From assembly GCA_044450345.1 (NCBI GenBank), contig JBIOIY010000059.1:1-18595 (forward strand): 18,595 nt of DNA. Direction: 5' to 3'. This DNA is from Thermodesulfovibrionales bacterium. Lineage in GTDB: Bacteria; Nitrospirota; Thermodesulfovibrionia; Thermodesulfovibrionales; UBA6898. A program made the position numbers and the translations under genes. Numbering within the stretch: position 1 is the first letter of the stretch; every line of letters starts with the position of its first letter. The notes beneath the pieces were generated by a model. It was not told the DNA's origin, did no database searches, and saw only the letters and a program-made list of their open reading frames with translations. Below, one piece after another: positions 336 through 13,975 of the stretch.

Positions 336-3300
336 ATGCAGAAAGAAACAATCACAACTGAAAGCGGGACTGTACTGCTCGTAGAAAAGGAGATCAGGGA
401 CTCTGTAGCCGAGGTCACTATCCGGGCAGATGCGGACACCACGGCTGTCCTCCACTGGGGTGTCCGCAATAGGGGAAATACTTCCTGGCAAGTCCCTCCC
501 GAACGGTCATGGCCGGAAGGAAGCCACGCCTTCGACTCCAAGTCTGTCCGGACGCCTTTCTTAAAGGAGGGCGACCAGCCTCTCATAAGGATCCGGCTTG
601 ATAGCTCCTCCGGTCTCAGTTCGGTGGATTTCGTCCTCTTTTTCCCGCTGGAGAACCAGTGGGATAATAATCGCGGGAAAAATTACCGGATCGATATCCC
701 GGCGATCAGACCTTCGACTGACGAGGCCGCCCTCGGAAACACAGAGCTCTTGGAAGTCGCAGAAGAGATAATAGAACATGAGATGAGCAAAAATTCATGG
801 ACGCTGATGCACCGTTTCAATCTTTGTTATGACCTTCTCGACAGAGTAAAGGACAACGTAGACGGCCTGGCCCTTATCTTCGTATGGCTCCGTTATTCAT
901 TTATCAGACAGCTCGACTGGCAGCGGAATTACAATACACAGCCCAGGGAACTAGGCCACGCGATGGACCGCCTCACGCTCAAACTCGCCGGCCTTTATAC
1001 GGAGGGCCCTGCAGGCGGCGGGATGATAAGGCTCGTCATGCCAACCCTCGGCAGGGGCGGCGATGCACAGCGGGTCCGTGACGAGGTCCTGAACATAATG
1101 CACCGCCATCATATCAAAGAAGTTTCGGGCCATTTCATGGAGGAGTGGCATCAGAAGCTCCACAACAACACGACTCCGGACGATATCGTGATCTGCGAGG
1201 CATATCTCGAATTCATGAGAAACAACGGCAATCTCGACAGGTTCTATAAAAAACTCAATGAGGGAGGCGTAACAAAGGAGAGGCTTGAAGGCTATGAGAG
1301 GCCGATACGGTCACACCCCGATTTCATACCTTACCTGAAGGACCCCCTGATCCGTGACTTCGAGCATTTCCTCGGCATACTGAAGGCGGTTCATACAGGC
1401 ACCGATCTGGGCACCGCCATCCACACGGCACGTTACCTTTTCGACCCCGATATGCACGCCGTGATGGACTTCATCTGGTACCATAACAACGATGCGAAGA
1501 TGCCGGTCGAACTGGCCGAAAAGATCACCGGTGCCCGCCGCTGGATCTCAAAAAGGCTGACGGGCGATGCCGGCAGGGTGCGCGACCTCCTCTTTCTCGA
1601 TATCGCACTTGAGGACTTTCTTCGCAGTATCGTTGAGAGGTGCGCCATCCCTGATCTCGGCCCGAACGAGCTCATGGCAATGACCTCCCTGGTGTTGGAA
1701 AACCTTTCTGTCACAGATGCCGATGAAGAACTTTTCAGCTGCCTCAGTCTCTGGGAGAAAATCAATAAGATGGTCTGCTTCGATCGGGAATGGTCGCTCC
1801 GCGCCAGGGCAGTAACCGACCGGATAGGCCGGTACCTCGGGGTATGCGTAGACAGGTATAACCTGCTTTTTCAGCTGAAGGCGGCATATCTGGGAGGGGC
1901 ATTCCGGGCGGATTCCTGGGCCATAAGCCTCTTTGTCGAGGAGGTGCTGCGGGGCCGTCCGGCCTTCGCCATGTCGATGCTCTTGCGACACCTAGACCCT
2001 CTTCTCAGAAAAAACGCCCGAATGGGGGACTGGCAAGTGATAAGCCCCGGGCATGCCGAAGGGGAACTCGAAGTAGTTGAGGCGTTGAAATCGATCGAGG
2101 GAAAAAGCTTCGACCGGCCTGTCGTCGTAGTGGCAGAAAAGGTTACAGGATATGAGGAGATCCCAAAAGGGGTATCTGCGATAGTGACCCCGGCAGTGGT
2201 CGACCTGCTCTCTCATATTGCGGTGCGTGCAAGAAATGCGGGTGTACTCTTCGCCACGTGTTACGATGCGGCGCGGATAGATCAATTGAAGTCCCTCAGA
2301 GGCCATGCACTGAAACTGGGAATAACCGGCAGCGATGTCGTTGCCGAGGAGGCCGCGGGAGCAGGTGTTGTCGCTGCAGTCCGGATGCAGTACTCCCACG
2401 GGGCGTTCACGAGACCAGCCTTCACGAGCTATGCAATAACGATGGATGATTTCACGGAGATAAACGTCGGCGGGAAATCGAACCACCTGAAACTCGTAAA
2501 AGGAAACCTGCCCGACTGGATCGGGATTCCGGCATCTGCGGCACTACCCTTCGGGGTGTTCGAAAAAGTCCTGTCTCAAGAAGAGAACAGGGATTGTTCA
2601 GGAAAAATCGGGGAACTCATCAGGAAGCTCGGGGACGGTCCTAATACATCCCGGGAACTGATTGAGAAAATCCGGAAGACCATACTCGATATGAAGGCCC
2701 CCCGGGAACTGGTCACGTCTCTTTATTCGGTCATGGACGCTTCGGGTATCGCACGGCCCTCGAACTGGGAGGATGCATGGACCTGCATAAAAAGCGTATG
2801 GGCCTCAAAATGGAACGAAAGGGCCTATCTCAGCCGGAAAGCAAACGGGATACCGCATGATGACCTCTTCATGGCGGTACTCATCCAAACGGTGGTCGAG
2901 GCCGACTATGGCTTTGTGGTCCATACGGTCAACCCTCTTTCCCTTGCAAAAGACGAGATATATGCCGAGGCCGTGCTCGGTCTCGGAGAGGCGCTTGTCG
3001 GAAACTACCCGGGTAAGGCGCTCAGTTTTACCTGCAAGAAGGGAAAGGGTGAACCTTATATACTTTCGTTCCCCAGCAAGAGCGAAGGCCTCTACGGAGG
3101 CGGCCTCATCTTCCGTTCGGATTCAAGTGGAGAAGACCTCGCAGGCTTCGCAGGAGCAGGCCTTTATGACAGCTTCCTTCTGCCCCGGCCAAAAAAAGTC
3201 ACGCTCGATTATACGAAAGACCGCCTTTTGTGGGACGACGCATTCAGAATGGATTTTCTCTCGCGTATCGCCGGGATAGGGTCTGCAGTGGAAGGGGCTC

Positions 3301-3392
3301 TCGGATCTCCCCAGGACATCGAGGGTGCTTATGCGAAAGGCGGATTCTACGTAGTCCAGTCGCGACCGCAAGTGGGCATCGACAATGTCTGA
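336..3392 (+). CDS. alpha-glucan water dikinase (GWD/R1-like) with N-terminal CBM45-like module
   Basis: 1018 aa. N-terminal LHWGV..W.VPP..RTPF..FVL..WDNN.G.NY resembles CBM45. GWD1-type blocks: LMHRFNL, RQLDWQRNYNTQPRE, GRGG..QRVRDEVL, MEEWHQKLHNNTTPDDIVIC. Phosphohistidine motif LSHIAVRARN (H627, nt 2214-2216). C-terminal ATP-binding PEP/pyruvate-binding domain: VGGKS, VWASKWNERAY, GLGEALVGNYPG, RSDSSGEDLAGFAGAGLYDS, QDIEG, VVQSRPQV. Confidence 0.92.
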   Translation: MQKETITTESGTVLLVEKEIRDSVAEVTIRADADTTAVLHWGVRNRGNTSWQVPPERSWPEGSHAFDSKSVRTPFLKEGDQPLIRIRLDSSSGLSSVDFVLFFPLENQWDNNRGKNYRIDIPAIRPSTDEAALGNTELLEVAEEIIEHEMSKNSWTLMHRFNLCYDLLDRVKDNVDGLALIFVWLRYSFIRQLDWQRNYNTQPRELGHAMDRLTLKLAGLYTEGPAGGGMIRLVMPTLGRGGDAQRVRDEVLNIMHRHHIKEVSGHFMEEWHQKLHNNTTPDDIVICEAYLEFMRNNGNLDRFYKKLNEGGVTKERLEGYERPIRSHPDFIPYLKDPLIRDFEHFLGILKAVHTGTDLGTAIHTARYLFDPDMHAVMDFIWYHNNDAKMPVELAEKITGARRWISKRLTGDAGRVRDLLFLDIALEDFLRSIVERCAIPDLGPNELMAMTSLVLENLSVTDADEELFSCLSLWEKINKMVCFDREWSLRARAVTDRIGRYLGVCVDRYNLLFQLKAAYLGGAFRADSWAISLFVEEVLRGRPAFAMSMLLRHLDPLLRKNARMGDWQVISPGHAEGELEVVEALKSIEGKSFDRPVVVVAEKVTGYEEIPKGVSAIVTPAVVDLLSHIAVRARNAGVLFATCYDAARIDQLKSLRGHALKLGITGSDVVAEEAAGAGVVAAVRMQYSHGAFTRPAFTSYAITMDDFTEINVGGKSNHLKLVKGNLPDWIGIPASAALPFGVFEKVLSQEENRDCSGKIGELIRKLGDGPNTSRELIEKIRKTILDMKAPRELVTSLYSVMDASGIARPSNWEDAWTCIKSVWASKWNERAYLSRKANGIPHDDLFMAVLIQTVVEADYGFVVHTVNPLSLAKDEIYAEAVLGLGEALVGNYPGKALSFTCKKGKGEPYILSFPSKSEGLYGGGLIFRSDSSGEDLAGFAGAGLYDSFLLPRPKKVTLDYTKDRLLWDDAFRMDFLSRIAGIGSAVEGALGSPQDIEGAYAKGGFYVVQSRPQVGIDNV

Positions 3393-6300
3393 CAGCCCCC
3401 TCATAAAGATCGGCAACCAGACCGCCTACTCGGCAGCGACCATTACAGAACCATTTGACTTTGCGGTAGATAACGGGTTCGATGCATTTGAATGGTTCCC
3501 GGACAAAAAAATCACTGGCGAGGGCTGGCGGGCGGGCGACATCCCGGAGGAGATGCGTGCGAAGATCCGCCGGACCGCAGCTGACTGCAATATGCGTCTC
3601 TCCGTGCATGCGCCCTGGCCGTCGGACCCCCTGACACCCGAGAACGCCGCGTCCTTCCCTGAGACAATCGGGTTAGCGGTGGATGTCGGCGCTTCCCTTC
3701 TGAATATCCACCTTCGCTCCGACAAGGGACCTGAGGCCTTTGCAGAAGCCCTCCGGCCTCTCCTCGCGCTCATTGGAGAAGCGGGAATGCACCTCTCGGT
3801 CGAAAATACGGTGTATACCTCACCGTCGGACTTCAATCTTTTTTTTCGTCAATTGCGCAAATCCTATTCCGGGGACATATCCCTGGCGGGGATGTGTCTT
3901 GACATAGGGCATGCGAACCTCTGCAGCGGGACGCGGAATGATTATCTCAGGTTCCTTGATCTGCTTGATGACGAGGTCCCGATTATCCATCTGCATATGC
4001 ATGAGAATTACGGAGACCGGGACAGCCATCTCACTGTCTTCACCGGTCCTGCGGGAAGGGACCCCTCCGGCATAGAAGGGCTTATCGGGCGTCTGAAAAG
4101 GCGGAACTTCTCCGGCTCGTTCATCCTCGAACAATGGCCTGAACCGCAGCGCCTTCTTATCGAAGCAAGGGACAGGCTGATTCATATCATAAACAAAGCG
4201 GCAGATGCGCCCGAGGAAGGACCCGACCAACCAGGTATGCATGAGGGGATCGTGGAAAGGTTTGTCTCGGCCAACAGGCAGTTCACGAGTTGGAGGAAGA
4301 GACTTGAATGGGTCAGCACACTGCTGCCCCAGCGACCGCAGGAGCCGGACCTCGAACTGCTCATATATATCGCAATCTATCTGAGGTTCCTTGGGACAGG
4401 GGAGATCAGCTGCAGCGAGGAAGGAGGTCACCACCGCCCCTCGCAGCATGCGAAACTTTCGGAGCATATATATAAACGCCTTGCCGGGATCGAGAATGCG
4501 GAAAACAGGCTGGTCATAAGGAAGATCTATCCATGGCTACCCTCGTTCGACACAGAGTTCATGAGGGCCGAACCGCTCACCCGCATCAGAGACATCGCAC
4601 ACAGAAACGACATCCCTCAGGAGCTCAAGCGGGAGATAAAGACGACGCTTCAGAACAAACTCCACCGCTCTGCGGGTCCTGAGGACCTTGCAACTTCCGA
4701 GGCCCTGTTTAAGAAAATCACGGCGCAAGGCGCCTCATACCCGGAACCATTCGTCGAGGAATTCAGACGCTTTCATAAGGAGTTGAAGGACTTCTTCAAC
4801 GCAGGCAGCCTGAAGGACCTGCTCATTGCCCTAAAAGAAAAAGGTGATATCGACAAGCCTCAACTCATAGATGACTTCCTTCATTTCATCGCACGCCGGA
4901 ACGAAAAAAAGGCAGGCCGCGATCAGGTCATGGAGGAACTCGAACTATTGACTGGACTGCGCAGGTCGCTTGCCGGCACTGATACTATCACGGCTGCACA
5001 GCAGCATCGTTTGAAGACCGCAGATATCAGGTTCGAAGACCACTCCTTTGTCCTTCTCAGCACCTTTATCAACTCGATAGACCCTTCGCAGGACCTGCCG
5101 TGGAAGACCACCCTTTGCACGCTCGCCCTTGCCACGGAAAATCTCAATCTCGGAGGCCTTGATCCTGAAGAATGCCGCGCCGTCGAGTCTGAACTTCGAG
5201 TTTGGTCTGTTGATTTCGATCCTGAAGACCGCGACTGCCTCCTCCGTCTTAAGGCGACGGTCGACAGGTGCCGCAGACTTGCAGGGGAATATGCCGACAG
5301 AATCCTTGCGCTTTTCTCCGAAAAGGTGAATACCCTTGGACATGCCCTCGGTCTGCCGGAACATGCGGTAAAGTTCTTTGCAGAGGCCGATATCAGAAGT
5401 CACCCGGTCTTCCAGCTCTCCAAACTCGTTGAATTACTGATAAGGAATATCAGGAGCCGTGCCCTTCTCCAGCCCTGGGATGTCATCGTGCCGGGGGAGG
5501 CATCAGGCCGCCTCGCAACAGTTCGATCGCTCGCCTCCGTTGCAGATACCGGAGACGGACCGCTCATCGTGTTTACGGATAAAGCAGAAGGCGACGAGGA
5601 GATACCACCGCACGTGACCGGTCTCATAATTGCCGGTGAGATCCCCCTCCTCTCCCATCTCGCTGTGCGGGCCCGCCAGAGGGGCACCGTATTCGTCGCA
5701 TTCGAAGATATCGGTCGCATCGCTGAGCTAAAGAAACTCTCGGGAAAACCGATAACGATATGCGTGACCGCTGACGCTTTTGAAATAGCCGACGCGAAGA
5801 TGCCGGATCCGGGTACCTTCAAGGCCCGCGCCGCACGAGTGACGCTGCTGGAAGTATCTCCTGACTTTACTTCCGGTAGGACCCTTCCGCTCGACAGGGT
5901 CACCGTGGCGACCGGGGGTGCAAAGGCGGATGCCGCACGGCGCCTTAAAGAGATCTCGAAACTCGGTAACGCCGATTTTGAAGTGCCCCATGGTGTTGTC
6001 ATACCCTTCGGAGCCATGGAGGAATCCCTCCACTCCCTGCCTTTTCTCGAGACGGAATATGACGCCGCATTGAAGAAAATCGATCGCCTGCCGCATCCGA
6101 ATATGGGGGCACAACTGCAGAGACTCAGGGAACTGGTCCTGCAGCTTCCCGTTGACGATGGGCTGATGGCCGGCATCACTGCCCATTTTGCAAAGGGCGA
6201 GCGGGTCATGGTCCGCTCGAGCTCGAATTGTGAGGACCTGGAAGGCTTTGCAGGGGCCGGGCTCTATGATTCCATTCCTAACGTACCGCAATCCGCAATA

Positions 6301-6852
6301 GCGTTGGCGGTCTGCAAGGTATGGGCATCTCTCTGGAACAGACGTGCGGCCGAAGCGAGACAACACGCCTCTATCCCGCATGACAGGGCCCGCATGGCGG
6401 TACTTGTCCAGCGGATGATGCCGACTGATATCTCCTTTATAATGCATACGGTCAACCCGGTCAGCAATAACGAAGACGAAATTATCATAGAATTTGCGGT
6501 AGGGCTGGGCGAAACCCTTGCGTCAGGACATGAGCCCGGCGCGCCGTTCCGCGCGGTCTACCGCAAAAAAACAGGCGGGATAGAGATGCTCTCGTTTGCC
6601 AGCTACAGCGCCGCCCTCGTTCAGGACCGTCGCGGGGAACTCGAACGAAATATAATCGATTACTCGAAGATACCCTTGTCGATGGATAAGAACGTCAGAG
6701 CCGCATTGTGCAGTCGCATAGGAAACATAGCCGGCCGCATCGAGGCGTCGTTCGGGCTCCCGCTTGACATAGAAGGGCTCGTGGTCGGTAACAGAGTCTG
6801 TATAGTCCAGGCCAGGCCTCAGCAGAGGATACAGGAGGAACGCAGGCGATGA
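3385..6852 (+). CDS. phosphoglucan water dikinase (PWD/GWD3-like) fused to N-terminal xylose-isomerase/AP-endonuclease-2 TIM barrel
   Basis: 1155 aa; overlaps the upstream stop by 8 nt. Residues ~1-270 form a TIM barrel (SVHAP, VENT, LDIGH, HLHMHEN, DSHL, ILEQ). PWD blocks: SWRKRLE, YIAIYLRFLGTGEISCSEEGGHHRP, LPSF..EF...EPLTRIRDIAHRNDIP..LK.EIK.TLQNKLHRSAGPEDL. Phosphohistidine LSHLAVRARQ (H758, nt 5656-5658). ATP domain: GGAKA, VRSSSNCEDLEGFAGAGLYDS, VWASLW, GLGETLASG, VQARPQ. Confidence 0.9.
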   Translation: MSDSPLIKIGNQTAYSAATITEPFDFAVDNGFDAFEWFPDKKITGEGWRAGDIPEEMRAKIRRTAADCNMRLSVHAPWPSDPLTPENAASFPETIGLAVDVGASLLNIHLRSDKGPEAFAEALRPLLALIGEAGMHLSVENTVYTSPSDFNLFFRQLRKSYSGDISLAGMCLDIGHANLCSGTRNDYLRFLDLLDDEVPIIHLHMHENYGDRDSHLTVFTGPAGRDPSGIEGLIGRLKRRNFSGSFILEQWPEPQRLLIEARDRLIHIINKAADAPEEGPDQPGMHEGIVERFVSANRQFTSWRKRLEWVSTLLPQRPQEPDLELLIYIAIYLRFLGTGEISCSEEGGHHRPSQHAKLSEHIYKRLAGIENAENRLVIRKIYPWLPSFDTEFMRAEPLTRIRDIAHRNDIPQELKREIKTTLQNKLHRSAGPEDLATSEALFKKITAQGASYPEPFVEEFRRFHKELKDFFNAGSLKDLLIALKEKGDIDKPQLIDDFLHFIARRNEKKAGRDQVMEELELLTGLRRSLAGTDTITAAQQHRLKTADIRFEDHSFVLLSTFINSIDPSQDLPWKTTLCTLALATENLNLGGLDPEECRAVESELRVWSVDFDPEDRDCLLRLKATVDRCRRLAGEYADRILALFSEKVNTLGHALGLPEHAVKFFAEADIRSHPVFQLSKLVELLIRNIRSRALLQPWDVIVPGEASGRLATVRSLASVADTGDGPLIVFTDKAEGDEEIPPHVTGLIIAGEIPLLSHLAVRARQRGTVFVAFEDIGRIAELKKLSGKPITICVTADAFEIADAKMPDPGTFKARAARVTLLEVSPDFTSGRTLPLDRVTVATGGAKADAARRLKEISKLGNADFEVPHGVVIPFGAMEESLHSLPFLETEYDAALKKIDRLPHPNMGAQLQRLRELVLQLPVDDGLMAGITAHFAKGERVMVRSSSNCEDLEGFAGAGLYDSIPNVPQSAIALAVCKVWASLWNRRAAEARQHASIPHDRARMAVLVQRMMPTDISFIMHTVNPVSNNEDEIIIEFAVGLGETLASGHEPGAPFRAVYRKKTGGIEMLSFASYSAALVQDRRGELERNIIDYSKIPLSMDKNVRAALCSRIGNIAGRIEASFGLPLDIEGLVVGNRVCIVQARPQQRIQEERRR

Positions 6853-9188
6853 ACCCCTGTCCCATACTACTCGGCTTGTTCCAGAAAAGGATAGAAGGCG
6901 ATGATGCCCTGCTACGGCTGGCGGCGCTGCGCTTCAGGGAAGCCAGGATGGGCGCCGAATATTACGTCGAATCCGCCGGAGAGCTCGAATGGCTGCTCGG
7001 CTTCAGGCCGTTTCATGATGCGCCTGTAGTCGTCCATCTGCCCCGTGGCGTAAACATATTCGATGAACCGTCGAGGCGGTTGATTATCGATTTCGCGGAG
7101 GGGTTCAGAGACAGGGTCTACGGCCTGGTGGTCCATGACCGGAACGTTGTCCCTTTACGTATGAATGAATATCTCGAGGCCTTGAGGGGACTGAATTCCG
7201 GCCTTAGGGCAATTGAGGGTGCGCCTCTCCTTTTTATCGAATACGCCGCGGGACTTGATCCTGAGGCATTCATACATATATTTAAGGCGATACCCGACCT
7301 TGAACACGTCAGTGCATGTGTGGATGTCGGACATATCGGCATTTGGCAGACAAGGACTGAATATTCGAAGAAACACCCGGGCGAAGACGTCTGCTCGCTG
7401 AAGCCTGAAAGTCCCACCCTCGCTTACCTTGTTGAAGACGTGGAAAGCGCGGTCGGGTCCGCACTCGAAAAAGTACTCTCTGTCATTCGGGAACTCGGCA
7501 TGATCGGAAAGCCGCTGCATTTTCATCTTCACGACGGCCACCCGCTCTCTGCATTCAGTCCCTACGGAGTCTCTGACCATCTCAGCTTTCTGACTGAGAT
7601 CCCTGTCCCTTTCGAGCATCATGGCAGGAAATCTCTCCCCCTGATGTTCGGACAGTCCGGGCTTTCCCGGATCGTCAACGAGGCGCTCCTTAAACCAGGG
7701 GCAGACAACGCCTCATTTACGCTGGAGATACATCCGGTTGAAGGGAGGCTGGGATTAGGCAACGCGGCCTACCTCTTTACCCACTGGGCGGACAAGGGCA
7801 ATGCGGAAAGGATGAACTTCTGGCTCTCGGTGATCACAAAGAACCAGAGGCTTCTTCTGAAGGCATGCCCGGAGGCTGAAGAGGTCCGTTACACGAGAAA
7901 GATGGTTATTTATAATTTATTTCCTCTCCTTGCCGGAAAATTTACGGAGTGGGAGGGCCATCTCGCAAGGGCGTCTGAGATGGGTTTCAACTGGGTCTTC
8001 GTCAACCCTATCCAGAGGCCGGGCGCTTCCGGGAGCCTCTATTCCATAGCCGACTATTTCGACTTTAATCCCGTCCTGGTAGACAAAGAAATCGGAAAGC
8101 CGCCGGAGGAGCAGGTGCAGGATGTTGTTAAAAGCGCCGGGAAACTCGGTCTTGCGCTGATGATGGACCTTGTGATCAACCATTGTTCAGTCGATTCCCC
8201 CCTGCTTAAGGTCCATCCGGAGTGGTTTCTTTGGGAATCAAAAGGCCGGGTTGCACACCCTTTCGCAGACGAAAACGGGAAAAAAGTTGTCTGGAAAGAC
8301 CTCGCGAAGTTCGACCACAGGAACACAAGTGATAAAGAAGGCCTCTATCAATATTTCTTCGAGATAGTGAAATTCCTCGCCGGGCTCGGCTTCAGGGGGT
8401 TCAGGTGCGACGCGGCATATCAGTTGCCGAGGGGGCTTTGGGAAAGGCTCATCGATGATACGAAGAAGGCATATCCGGACGCGCTGTTTTTTGCAGAGAC
8501 CCTCGGGAACCCCCCGGACCTCACGAGAAAGACCGCAAGCGCGGGGTTCGACTATATCTTCAACAGCTCAAAATGGTGGGACTTCTACGGCCACTGGCTA
8601 ATGAAGCAGTATGCCCTCACCAGGGACATCGCACCTTCGATAAGCTTTTCCGAGAGCCACGATACCATAAGGCTCGCGGAAGAGGTCAACGGGAACGTGG
8701 AAGGGCTTAAGCAGCGCTATCTCTTCTCAGCGCTTTTTTCGGGCGGGGTCATGATGCCTATGGGGTACGAATTCGGGTTCAAAAAAAGGCTTCATGTAGT
8801 CAAGACAAGACCGGGGGACTGGGAGGACACCGGCCTGGACCTCACAGACTTCATCGGCCGGGTGAACAGGATCAAATCGGAACATGTGATATTCCAGGAG
8901 GACGCCCCCACGGAAATGCTCTATCACGAAAACCCCAATGTCCTCCTCATGTGGAAGGCGTCGACCCACACCCGGGAAGAGTCGCTCCTCATCCTCAACA
9001 AAGACATTTACCGCTCACAGCACTTCTATGCCGACAGCCTTCAGAAATATCTTCAGGCCGGTGCGCCGCTTATCGACATATCTCCTGAAAACCCTCTCGA
9101 CTATATTCCTGCTCCCTTTATCTACGACCTCGCCCCCGGGCAGGGCATCGTGCTCATCACACAGAGAGACCTTCCGGCGGAAGACTGA
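6849..9188 (+). CDS. TIM-barrel (sugar-phosphate isomerase/endonuclease IV-like) domain fused to GH13 alpha-amylase-family catalytic domain
   Basis: 779 aa; ATGA overlap with the upstream gene and AGGAGG RBS. N-half motifs: VVHLP, FIEY, VDVGH, HFHLHDGH, SDHL, TLEIH. From M352 (nt 7902) GH13 regions: VFVNPI, SLYSIADY, MDLVINH, GFRCDAA (D521), FAETL (E550), SESHD (D605). Catalytic triad intact. Confidence 0.88.
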   Translation: MNPCPILLGLFQKRIEGDDALLRLAALRFREARMGAEYYVESAGELEWLLGFRPFHDAPVVVHLPRGVNIFDEPSRRLIIDFAEGFRDRVYGLVVHDRNVVPLRMNEYLEALRGLNSGLRAIEGAPLLFIEYAAGLDPEAFIHIFKAIPDLEHVSACVDVGHIGIWQTRTEYSKKHPGEDVCSLKPESPTLAYLVEDVESAVGSALEKVLSVIRELGMIGKPLHFHLHDGHPLSAFSPYGVSDHLSFLTEIPVPFEHHGRKSLPLMFGQSGLSRIVNEALLKPGADNASFTLEIHPVEGRLGLGNAAYLFTHWADKGNAERMNFWLSVITKNQRLLLKACPEAEEVRYTRKMVIYNLFPLLAGKFTEWEGHLARASEMGFNWVFVNPIQRPGASGSLYSIADYFDFNPVLVDKEIGKPPEEQVQDVVKSAGKLGLALMMDLVINHCSVDSPLLKVHPEWFLWESKGRVAHPFADENGKKVVWKDLAKFDHRNTSDKEGLYQYFFEIVKFLAGLGFRGFRCDAAYQLPRGLWERLIDDTKKAYPDALFFAETLGNPPDLTRKTASAGFDYIFNSSKWWDFYGHWLMKQYALTRDIAPSISFSESHDTIRLAEEVNGNVEGLKQRYLFSALFSGGVMMPMGYEFGFKKRLHVVKTRPGDWEDTGLDLTDFIGRVNRIKSEHVIFQEDAPTEMLYHENPNVLLMWKASTHTREESLLILNKDIYRSQHFYADSLQKYLQAGAPLIDISPENPLDYIPAPFIYDLAPGQGIVLITQRDLPAED

Positions 9189-13363: not shown

Positions 13364-13975
13364 TTACTTGAGTGCCTCGTATACCCTTCCGACCATCTCC
13401 GCAGACGGTTTCAGCGTTTTGTCACCTTCTTCTTTCCATTTTACCGGGCAGGCCTCATCCCCGTGCTGACCGAGATACATATTGGCCTTCACCTTCCTTA
13501 ACAGTTCCTCGATATTCCTTCCAAGATTGTAATAATTCACCTCTGCATTTAAGAGCTTTCCCTCCGGGCTGATAAGGAACGACCCTCTTAGCGCAAGGCC
13601 CGTTGCCTCATCATAGACACCGAACATCCGTGATACGTTGCCGGTGGGATCGGAGGCCATCGTAAATTTCGTCTTCTCAAGCATCTTTTCTTCCCTTTGC
13701 CAGGCAAGATGGACGAACTTCGTGTCCCTGCTGACAGTGACAACCTCCGCCCCCTCCTCCTTGAACCGTGCCTGCAGCTCTGCCAGAGCCGCGAACTCGG
13801 TGGCTCAGACAAAGGTAAAGTCCGCTGGATAGAAAAACAGTACCGTCCATCTCTTTTGGTCCTTCAGTGCCTGCAAACTGATCTCTCCGAAATCGCCTTT
13901 TTCAGGCTCCCATGTCTCCATCTTGAAATCCGGGACGGTGTCCCCGACCCTTAATCCGCAACAGTGTTCTCCCAT
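13364..13975 (-). CDS. prxU: selenocysteine-containing AhpC/Prx1-type peroxiredoxin (203 aa, Sec57)
   Basis: ATG 13975 with AAGGAGGA RBS gives MGEHCCGLRVGDTVPDFKMET...WTVLFFYPADFTFV-UGA-ATEFAALAE... in frame with the ORF-track fragment 13364-13684. The UGA (13805-13807) is at the peroxidatic Cys position. Resolving motif GDEACPVKW. Confidence 0.9.
13774..13792 (-). promoter_or_regulatory. bacterial SECIS-like hairpin
   Basis: GCGGCUCU-GGC-AGAGCUGC: 8-bp stem (one G-U) with a G-containing apical loop, starting 12 nt 3' of the in-frame UGA. Confidence 0.7.

Follow-up and report, generated by a model that had tools for sequence, protein, structure and literature searches.

An endonuclease IV-like barrel fused to a phosphoglucan, water dikinase-like protein in bacteria: a candidate glucan phosphoesterase

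Introduction

The plant phosphoglucan, water dikinase (PWD) carries an N-terminal CBM20 domain. Endonuclease IV (Endo IV), a DNA-repair enzyme, hydrolyses phosphoesters on the 3'-oxygen of a sugar, 3'-phosphate monoesters included. According to PMC12892837, the phosphate set at C6 and C3 by GWD and PWD is removed by the plant and animal enzymes SEX4, LSF2 and laforin, which lets the hydrolases proceed, and the only glucan phosphatases known are cysteine-dependent enzymes of the dual-specificity phosphatase (DSP) type. The same paper reports that LSF1 forms a complex with beta-amylase. A non-DNA phosphodiesterase of the AP_endonuc_2 superfamily, CbiR, remodels cobamides; according to PMC7733943 it is inhibited by EDTA, and mutation of His/Asp/Glu positions that are conserved costs it its activity.

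In the bacterial locus described here, two barrels with an Endo IV-type metal site stand together with a GH13 enzyme and a pair of dikinases of the GWD family. A literature search, with most subscription journals outside its reach, turned up nothing on GWD/PWD clusters of bacteria, nor on a glucan phosphatase with a TIM barrel.

Results

Organization of the locus

The window is the whole stretch of DNA that was analysed, 18,595 nucleotides in length. The features considered are as follows.

336..3392, forward strand: ORF A, a GWD-like alpha-glucan, water dikinase (Pfam domains Ig_N_CWD1, GWD1_pHisD and PPDK_N)
3385..4209, forward strand: barrel of ORF B (TIMb), residues 1-275 (Pfam PF01261, AF2 model and mapping of Nfo ligands)
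4210..4254, forward strand: linker rich in Pro, Glu and Asp, joining the barrel to the dikinase part of ORF B (low model confidence)
4255..5454, forward strand: central domain of ORF B (26% identical by BLASTP to the corresponding region of ORF A, E 1e-14)
5476..5793, forward strand: phosphohistidine domain of ORF B (Pfam GWD1_pHisD, PF22973, residues 698-803, E 4.5e-22)
5944..6852, forward strand: PPDK_N-type ATP-binding domain of ORF B, up to the stop codon (PPDK_N, PF01326, residues 854-1153, E 1.2e-38)
6849..7868, forward strand: C_N, a second, divergent barrel paralogue at the N-terminus of ORF C (hhalign, AF2 and Foldseek)
7920..9188, forward strand: GH13 alpha-glucan-active catalytic domain of ORF C (Pfam hDGE_amylase and Alpha-amylase)

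ORF A consists of an Ig-like N-terminal domain, a central domain, a phosphohistidine domain and an ATP-binding domain, in that order, and its central domain matches the solved plant GWD fragments 9ha9/9qvi with an E value of 2.6e-87. ORF B is a single unbroken frame (3385-6852, forward strand) of 1155 amino acids. Its central domain is homologous to the central, glucan-binding domain of the GWD-like ORF A, and its ATP-binding domain matches PEP synthase structures (E 8e-18). The linker that follows the barrel is modelled by AF2 with low confidence, the pLDDT falling to 54-78 over the final three blocks of 10 residues. Homologues of ORF B are named phosphoglucan, water dikinase in public sources, a name given by automatic annotation. 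For the GH13 domain of ORF C the nearest solved structures are the alpha-amylase 4gkl (E 1.4e-17) and GlgE 5cgm (E 2e-15).

Fold and metal ligands of the barrel

The barrel of ORF B matches AP_endonuc_2 (PF01261) over residues 24-255 with an E value of 5.8e-18 and a score of 65.9 bits, above the Pfam gathering threshold of 31.1 bits, the match spanning positions 1-237 of the 249 in the Pfam model. Its AF2 model (pLDDT 92.5, pTM 0.89) is a (β/α)8 barrel of eight strand–helix units, which gives VIA Z values of 21-26 to many members of the AP_endonuc_2 superfamily.

The series of motifs that the preliminary description had picked out by eye lies where it was placed: H75 (SVHAP), H109 (NIHL), E140 (VENT), D173 and H176 (LDIGH), H202, H204 and H206 (HLHMHE), D213 and H215 (DSH), and E249 (ILEQ). 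These residues are invariant in all 241 homologous domains and also throughout the 48-sequence alignment A1. The series had been taken for the full ligand set of Endo IV, beyond the four-ligand E/D/H/E set of simple epimerases, and profile alignment (hhalign) to E. coli Nfo (probability 88%, E 3e-6) agrees, since the same residue type is found at nine of nine Nfo positions. Barrel residues H75, H109, E140, D173, H176, H206, D213, H215 and E249 pair with Nfo H69, H109, E145, D179, H182, H216, D229, H231 and E261, respectively. Of the Nfo residues, E145, D179, H182, H231 and E261 are reportedly metal ligands (Hosfield et al., 1999); H69, H109, H216 and D229 are metal ligands (PMC11621827). The positions of the epimerase-type E/D/H/E set are present in the barrel, together with the extra H109, H176 and H215. 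In a control alignment (hhalign) UlaE has A, N and K opposite these three histidines, which makes the ligand set of the barrel larger than that of the epimerase.

All nine ligands are located at, or just past, the C-terminal ends of strands β3 to β8 in the AF2 model, a placement from which they are predicted to converge in three dimensions. Further invariant residues of the barrel are H202, H204, E207, N208, W37 and W48, none of which has a counterpart in the Endo IV mechanism.

Relationship to endonuclease IV and sugar epimerases

When the family profile is compared with solved structures, MJ1311 is the top match (7.9e-13), followed by the Endo IV enzymes 5zhz (3.4e-4), 6khy (2.9e-3) and 1qtw (0.011), with UlaE (0.11) behind all of them. 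Comparison of folds was tried as a means of discriminating between Endo IV and the epimerases and was set aside, as Foldseek and VIA place both within about 1 Z unit. The Endo IV family reaches VIA Z values of 21.8-24.6, with an rmsd of 2.7-3.3 over 242-256 residues, and the epimerases reach 22-23. With hhalign, too, Nfo (E 3e-6) and UlaE (E 3.2e-6) score alike. Overall similarity of sequence or fold therefore fails to separate Endo IV from the sugar epimerases.

A comparison of ORF B (P0001) with NCBIfam at E values up to 0.1 gives no match to TIGR00587, the equivalog model of nfo. That model has a single match in the organism's own genome, C58:17685-18506 (222 bits), which is a separate, true nfo, and the barrel is therefore not the repair enzyme. 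The sole NCBIfam match of the barrel is CbiR (NF041277; E 1.8e-7), but 30.9 bits is far short of the curated 105-bit cut-off, which rules the barrel out as a CbiR. A search of the ESM Atlas returned only the barrel's own family, under the name of a xylose isomerase-like barrel. The barrel belongs to a family of its own, so far uncharacterised, within the AP_endonuc_2 superfamily, and it retains the complete metal-ligand series of Endo IV.

A second barrel in ORF C

The preliminary description overlooked a barrel, C_N, at the start of the gene that follows ORF B. The C_N region has no Pfam match. Its AF2 model (pLDDT 91.5) is a (β/α)8 barrel, for which Foldseek returns Endo IV structures and ketose epimerases, and its invariant residues are H63, H96, E131, D159, H162, H224, H226, D243, H244 and E293. 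BLASTP between the ORF B barrel and C_N is marginal (E 0.025) and the kinship is visible only by profile comparison, the C_N alignment A2 matching A1 with a probability of 95% and an E value of 4e-8 (hhalign). Aligned straight to Nfo, A2 gives a weak and partial match (hhalign probability 7.6%), and the link of C_N to Endo IV rests on A1 as an intermediate and on Foldseek. C_N co-occurs with the second dikinase.

Fusions and gene neighbourhood

The fusion recurs elsewhere, as the preliminary description had proposed should be looked for. Among 80 species-level loci, which are kin, so that the counts overstate their independence, the barrel is joined to a whole dikinase in 39, to dikinase and C_N in 2, to the central domain only in 8 (as called, a contig end cutting some of them) and to GH13 in 2, and it is a standalone protein of approximately 270-320 residues in 29. 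An assembly artefact or lost stop codon is rejected both by the 39 fused loci and by proteins from other sources (1155 and 1146 amino acids), which are 93% and 92% identical over the barrel. In 14 of 27 mid-length protein clusters the sequence stops just before the phosphohistidine domain, leaving barrel and central domain without the kinase. Homologues of the standalone type number 1103 among the proteins listed (160-511 amino acids), and are named 'sugar phosphate isomerase/epimerase' in public sources, again by automatic annotation. The conserved order of the cluster is GWD, barrel, second dikinase, second barrel and GH13, and this five-module arrangement occurs in at least 517 species-level genomes. 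The barrel is thus an autonomous module of a conserved cluster. The earlier suggestion that it takes the place of CBM20 on PWD is not borne out in that form: no CBM20 is found in ORF B (Pfam, E up to 0.1), but the barrel, which also occurs standalone, on GH13 and on a central domain without a kinase, is not a PWD-specific substitute.

A GWD-like gene lies upstream of the barrel in 56 of the 65 loci with at least 3 kb of upstream sequence. In a sample of 301 genomes of the phylum the barrel occurs in 12, all of them among the 14 that bear GWD, and in none of the 287 without GWD, although barrel and GWD are far apart in some genomes. The most constant partner of the barrel is this GWD-like gene and not the PWD-like gene, which disfavours the earlier proposal of a module that targets PWD to phosphorylated chains. 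Glycogen synthase, GH57 branching enzyme and glucan phosphorylase are recurrent neighbours. In one complete genome (G106) a standalone barrel gene adjoins an NmrA-like gene, two genes from a 6-O-methylguanine methyltransferase, with no adjacent glucan genes.

Neither barrel was found in two of the 14 GWD-bearing genomes (G184 and G247), where the GH13 gene directly follows GWD; an eraser of the barrel type is consequently not obligatory. The only candidate for a replacement phosphatase in such genomes was a Metallophos gene, two genes off and on the opposite strand (locus L087), and it was unconvincing. No DSP-type glucan phosphatase was found in the operon, where P0001, P0002 and P0003 have no DSPc match (Pfam), and no DSPc domain was found in the whole genome of this bacterium, which is 91% complete.

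Discussion

A possible role in glucan dephosphorylation

The nine-ligand set, the widespread fusion, the linkage to dikinases and the lack of a DSP match in the genome fit a putative phosphoesterase role. The best explanation, with about an even chance of being right, is that the barrel is a phosphoesterase with a multinuclear metal site that acts on phosphorylated alpha-glucan, serving in place of the DSP phosphatases. In such a scheme phosphate esters would be set on the storage glucan by the GWD-like and PWD-like dikinases, the barrel would hydrolyse them with a water activated by metal, in the manner of Endo IV at the 3'-phosphate of a sugar, and the GH13 enzyme would proceed once the ester had been removed. 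The barrel, predicted to bind two to three metal ions (Zn, Fe or Mn), would then act on monoesters or diesters, at C6 or C3. Within a bacterial cycle of glucan phosphorylation its part would be that of the 'eraser', comparable to the plant DSP enzymes SEX4 and LSF2. C_N may be a second eraser with another specificity. A kinase and a phosphatase fused together for one polymer look futile unless their sites or timing differ.

The public names of the standalone homologues would suggest non-hydrolytic sugar chemistry instead, namely isomerisation, epimerisation, dehydration or elimination on a small phospho-sugar or phospho-oligosaccharide derived from phosphoglucan. Ketose 3-epimerases and UlaE are indeed among the many closest folds, UlaE equals Nfo in its hhalign score, and the epimerase E/D/H/E core lies within the nine-residue set. 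This chemistry is nevertheless unlikely, for the invariant H109, H176 and H215 match Endo IV ligands that are missing in UlaE, the epimerase names are automatic annotation, and the fusions with GH13 and with the central domain of the dikinase point to a polymer substrate, the internal glucosyl residues of which have no free carbonyl for enolisation. Additional ligands as such are compatible with epimerase chemistry. A barrel that served as a non-catalytic reader of phosphate esters, recruiting the PWD-like dikinase or GH13 to regions phosphorylated by GWD, would explain its N-terminal site (compare the Ig-like domain of ORF A and the CBM20 of plant PWD), its confinement to GWD genomes in the 301-genome sample and its fusion to two different glucan-acting enzymes. 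It is improbable, however, as a reader without attachment has no obvious use in the 29 of 80 loci where the barrel stands alone, and each of the 241 domains keeps all nine ligands, whereas pseudo-enzymes usually lose their catalytic residues.

With 39 of 80 loci joining the barrel directly to a dikinase, its role could also be to regulate the dikinases, for instance through hydrolysis of the phosphohistidine intermediate or of a nucleotide product in place of an action on glucan, and a metal phosphoesterase site could conceivably accept a phosphoramidate or a nucleotide. The GH13-fused and central-domain-only forms contain no phosphohistidine domain, however, and standalone genes are sometimes far from a dikinase, which makes regulation of this kind very improbable. 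It would be more surprising still to find a nucleic-acid enzyme, an AP endonuclease or 3'-phosphoesterase of Endo IV type with an incidental dikinase fusion. The ligand set is the same as that of Nfo, the nearest solved relative figures in a published table as a predicted Endo IV homologue from an archaeon, and the G106 gene lies close to the methyltransferase noted above; against this stand the missing match to the nfo equivalog and the separate nfo on contig C58, an occurrence that follows GWD (12 of 301 genomes, all with GWD) and three fused architectures with glucan enzymes.

A wider proposal can be put forward tentatively, at less than an even chance: that bacteria possess a reversible, starch-like cycle of alpha-glucan phosphorylation with two erasers of Endo IV fold, each paired with one dikinase, as an independent invention of glucan phosphatase unrelated to SEX4, LSF2 and laforin. 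The carriers in this two-eraser proposal are many anaerobic or sediment bacteria (Nitrospirota, Desulfobacterota, Scalindua, Chloroflexota, Verrucomicrobiota and others). Were the barrels phosphoesterases of phosphoglucan, bacteria would use a plant-like write-and-erase logic on their storage glucans, a new class of substrate would be added for the Endo IV active site, and a metal-dependent, redox-independent glucan phosphatase would be available that might serve in starch processing. The many split and fused forms of the barrel that occur in nature are ready-made test constructs. If the barrels act otherwise, they still mark an unexplained conserved step of bacterial alpha-glucan metabolism.

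Comparison with known systems

Endo IV (Nfo/Apn1; E. coli 1qtw, M. tuberculosis 5zhz and ASFV pE296R 6khy) has the (β/α)8 fold in common with the barrel. The barrel differs in its own invariant EWFPD and GW motifs after β2, in the barrel-specific HxHxHEN on β7 and EQWP after β8, and in its partners, by fusion or by clustering, which are glucan enzymes and not genes of DNA repair. Both by profile and by fold its nearest solved relative is MJ1311 of Methanocaldococcus jannaschii (PDB 3wqo; Foldseek 2.2e-12, VIA Z 25.8, rmsd 2.6 over 247 residues), with which it aligns at the motifs VHAP, ENxP, DIGHAN and IIHxHxH(D/E)N..D.HL. MJ1311, however, is a standalone archaeal protein and is only 17-19% identical to the barrel. 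Its structure was deposited as a 'D-tagatose 3-epimerase-like protein', while Table 1 of PMC2770678 gives it as a predicted M. jannaschii homologue of Endo IV. CbiR, as described above, sets a precedent in the superfamily of the barrel for a phosphodiesterase that does not act on DNA, though it lies among cobamide genes and the barrel among glucan genes.

Like plant GWD1 and PWD (GWD3), ORF B contains GWD-family central, phosphohistidine and ATP-binding domains; unlike them it has neither CBM20 nor CBM45, and its N-terminus is the barrel. The role proposed for the barrel would be analogous to that of SEX4, LSF2 and laforin, being a candidate for the removal of phosphate from glucan, whereas those cysteine-dependent dual-specificity phosphatases differ from it in both fold and chemistry. 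Finally, the fusion of barrels to GH13 parallels, as a physical coupling, the complex of LSF1 with beta-amylase.

Organization of the dikinase cluster

The cluster consists of three genes, the last two of which begin with a barrel-encoding region:

336–3392, +, ORF A, 1018 aa, GWD-like dikinase
3385–6852, +, ORF B, 1155 aa, PWD-like dikinase with the barrel as residues 1–275 (3385–4209)
6849–9188, +, ORF C, 779 aa, GH13 gene
6849–7868, +, C_N, residues 1–340 of ORF C, ahead of its GH13 domain

Stop and start codons overlap by 8 nt between ORF A and ORF B (3385–3392) and by 4 nt between ORF B and ORF C (6849–6852), which suggests translational coupling of all three. ORF A contains the Pfam domains Ig_N_CWD1, GWD1_pHisD and PPDK_N, and its central domain matches those parts of the plant alpha-glucan, water dikinase whose structures are solved (E 2.6e-87). 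ORF B consists of AP_endonuc_2 (residues 24–255, E 5.8e-18, 65.9 bits against a cut-off of 31.1), GWD1_pHisD and PPDK_N, with a central region homologous to that of ORF A (26% identity, E 1e-14). It is therefore a GWD-family dikinase with a TIM-barrel N-terminus. Pfam finds no CBM20 in ORF B. The GH13 domain of ORF C begins at about residue 358, and residues 1–340 have no Pfam match. Elsewhere in the window, a 106-aa ORF (13364–13684, −) covers just positions 82–121 of 124, towards the C-terminal end, of the AhpC/TSA peroxiredoxin profile, together with 1-cysPrx_C; its start may be another codon further upstream, or the gene may be truncated.

Putative metal-ligand series and fold of the ORF B barrel

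The residues previously listed from the barrel motifs (H75, H109, E140, D173, H176, H202/H204/H206, D213, H215 and E249) were read correctly. They are strictly conserved: none of the 241 homologous domains drawn from two protein searches deviates at any of them, nor does any sequence of A1, an alignment of 48 barrels. Profile alignment of A1 with E. coli endonuclease IV (Endo IV; Nfo, in the sequence of the annotated K-12 record) gives a probability of 88% and an E-value of 3e-6, and pairs nine barrel residues with Nfo H69, H109, E145, D179, H182, H216, D229, H231 and E261. Five of these, E145, D179, H182, H231 and E261, are reportedly Endo IV metal ligands. The other four, H69, H109, H216 and D229, are described as such in PMC11621827. 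The counterpart of Nfo H216 is H204 or H206, depending on which of two alignments is followed, and both histidines lie on the same face of β7. As a control, the E. coli epimerase UlaE scores equally against A1 (probability 88%, E 3.2e-6), with A, N and K at the positions of barrel H109, H176 and H215. The pairing with Nfo and the lack of these three histidines in UlaE indicate that the series is that of Endo IV and extends beyond the smaller epimerase set, in agreement with the original reading. On β7 (3985–4005, residues 202–208) the barrel has the invariant motif HxHxH(E/D)N in common with C_N and MJ1311; E. coli Nfo does not have it.

The AlphaFold2 model built with A1 is a (β/α)8 barrel (pLDDT 92.5, pTM 0.89). 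The nine putative ligands lie at or just past the C-terminal ends of β3–β8, where TIM barrels have their catalytic face, and from this we infer that they converge in space. The top Foldseek match is 3wqo (E 2.2e-12), the structure of MJ1311, an M. jannaschii protein tabulated as the predicted homologue of Endo IV (PMC2770678, Table 1). Structural comparison by VIA places 3wqo at Z 25.8 (rmsd 2.6 over 247), the ASFV AP endonuclease (6ki3) at 24.6, ketose 3-epimerases at about 22–23 and the E. coli and Thermus Endo IV at 21.8–21.9. By VIA and Foldseek epimerases match about as well as Endo IV, and fold alone fails as a test between the two subfamilies. Searched against solved chains, the A1 profile gives E-values of 7.9e-13 for MJ1311, 3.4e-4 for M. 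tuberculosis Endo IV, 2.9e-3 for the ASFV AP endonuclease, 0.011 for E. coli Nfo and 0.11 for UlaE.

The only NCBIfam match of the barrel is CbiR (E 1.8e-7, well under the cut-off). CbiR is a cobamide phosphodiesterase, and its example shows that enzymes of this superfamily can cleave phosphodiesters outside DNA in an EDTA-sensitive manner (PMC7733943). With the barrel as query, a full scan of 1.84 billion representative proteins recovers just 368 (E ≤ 0.001); the barrel family is compact and distinct. Its members carry generic public names only (‘TIM barrel protein’, ‘sugar phosphate isomerase/epimerase’).

A second barrel in ORF C

With C_N the operon has another Endo IV-like barrel, a divergent paralogue of the first. 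A2, an alignment of 31 C_N orthologues, matches A1 with a probability of 95% (E 4e-8). The C_N model (pLDDT 91.5) is a (β/α)8 barrel into which a hairpin is inserted, and its Foldseek matches include Endo IV structures and ketose epimerases. At the ligand positions C_N has invariant H63, H96, E131, D159, H162, H224, H226, D243, H244 and E293, the D.H pair being seemingly offset by one residue. Given this relationship, the operon encodes a pair of paralogous barrels along with two dikinases and a single GH13 enzyme.

Architectures and gene context

The barrel is an autonomous module. It is common to 403 proteins of 635–2022 aa; among the 120 matches listed, most combine PF01261, PF22973 and PF01326, and three combine PF01261 with GH13 domains. 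A search at 160–511 aa found 1103 proteins, mostly standalone barrels with 50–60% identity. A species-level genome scan confirmed at least 517 loci, those listed including Nitrospirota, Desulfobacterota, Scalindua, Chloroflexota, Verrucomicrobiota, Acidobacteriota and Omnitrophota, among others; 80 were kept for the architecture counts.

Architectures of the barrel in 80 loci
Barrel and whole dikinase: 39
Barrel, dikinase and C_N: 2
Barrel and central domain only: 8 (some end at a contig edge)
Barrel and GH13: 2
Standalone barrel: 29

The fusion with the dikinase is accordingly real and widespread, but the barrel has other arrangements as well. In 14 of 27 protein clusters of 600–1000 aa the sequence stops at the equivalent of ORF B residues 686–697, directly before the phosphohistidine domain; this common end point and the similar C-terminal tails of the 14 clusters argue that the barrel with a central domain and no kinase is a true architecture. 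Proteins of this kind, with a GWD-type central domain and about 690–730 aa, include P0018, P0022, P0025, P0027, P0028, P0035, P0044 and P0055, among others, and the product of locus L009:3509–5593. A protein of 5557 aa (P0329) contains two barrel-like domains (residues ~3169–3329 and 3761–3985) that keep the motifs VHAAW, IENT, CLDVGHANL and HFHDNNG..D.H; phmmer detected no dikinase or GH13 part in it.

The barrel is tightly tied to glucan dikinases and alpha-glucan enzymes. The conserved gene order is GWD, barrel, second dikinase, C_N, GH13, with a GWD-like gene upstream in 56 of the 65 loci that have at least 3 kb of upstream sequence. The second dikinase and C_N travel together: of the 52 loci whose downstream sequence reaches at least 7.5 kb, 33 have both, 16 have neither and 3 have just one. 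In 17 the barrel is present and the second dikinase absent. Recurrent flanking genes in the 80 loci encode GT5 glycogen synthase (22), GH57 branching enzyme (20), DUF4912 (16), GT4 (9), glucan phosphorylase (9) and GlgB (4). The DUF4912 protein lies downstream of the cluster, for example at L035:13342–14169, beside GT5 glycogen synthase and GH57 branching enzyme.

Co-occurrence was followed in 301 genomes drawn evenly from the phylum (barrel at E up to 1e-30, GWD phosphohistidine domain above cut-off). The barrel is present in 12 and the GWD domain in 14; GWD is found in 12 of 12 barrel genomes and the barrel in 0 of 287 genomes without GWD, counts that are descriptive only since the genomes are kin. 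In several barrel genomes the two genes are non-adjacent, and in one complete genome (G106) they lie at 22.6 kb and 677 kb, about 650 kb apart. Next to the standalone barrel of G106 (L082:8574–9389) lies an NmrA-like gene, and a 6-O-methylguanine DNA methyltransferase is encoded two genes upstream. Two genomes of the same taxonomic order, G184 (L085:7216–11688) and G247 (L087:6430–11130), have GWD-like genes with the same GH13 gene directly behind them, and neither type of barrel was found anywhere in either genome. The L087 locus does have a gene for a calcineurin-like phosphoesterase, two genes off on the opposite strand.

Proposed function

Endo IV takes phosphate off the 3'-oxygen of a sugar, a precedent for the chemistry considered here. 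There is perhaps an even chance that the barrel is a hydrolase of the phosphate esters placed on glucan by the dikinases. Its site would bind two or three metal ions, and removal of the phosphate would let GH13 and other enzymes proceed, with one barrel per dikinase, as the pairing pattern suggests. The host genome (3.19 Mb, 91% complete) has glycogen synthases and GH57 enzymes, and the DSP phosphatase domain, earlier reported missing from the operon, was not found in that genome either.

The phosphoesterase reading is weakened by the similarity of the barrel, in sequence and fold, to epimerases as much as to Endo IV. A reaction of the isomerase or epimerase type, on a phospho-sugar that has been released, is unlikely in our estimate. 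The phosphoesterase reading is also weakened by G184 and G247, which have GWD but neither barrel, by the unrelated neighbours of the G106 standalone barrel, and by the invariant H202, H204, E207, N208, W37, W48 and W251, which the Endo IV mechanism does not account for. Moreover, the fusion of a kinase with a phosphatase needs explaining, for example by different sites or sequential action. A non-catalytic reader of phosphoglucan, the other role first proposed, is weakened by the standalone barrels and the intact ligands and appears quite doubtful. Regulation of the dikinase by its fused barrel is very improbable, and a role as a DNA enzyme is the least probable of all. Identity with the repair enzyme nfo was rejected, since the barrel has no match to the nfo equivalog model and the host genome has its own nfo gene (equivalog match at 222 bits).

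A search of full-text literature, with most subscription journals outside its coverage, found no published bacterial GWD/PWD cluster or TIM-barrel glucan phosphatase. In the reading favoured here, alpha-glucan phosphorylation would have recruited a metal barrel of the Endo IV type. The role proposed for the barrel as a phosphoesterase would resemble the logic described for plants, in which GWD and PWD phosphorylate and SEX4/LSF2 then act (PMC12892837).
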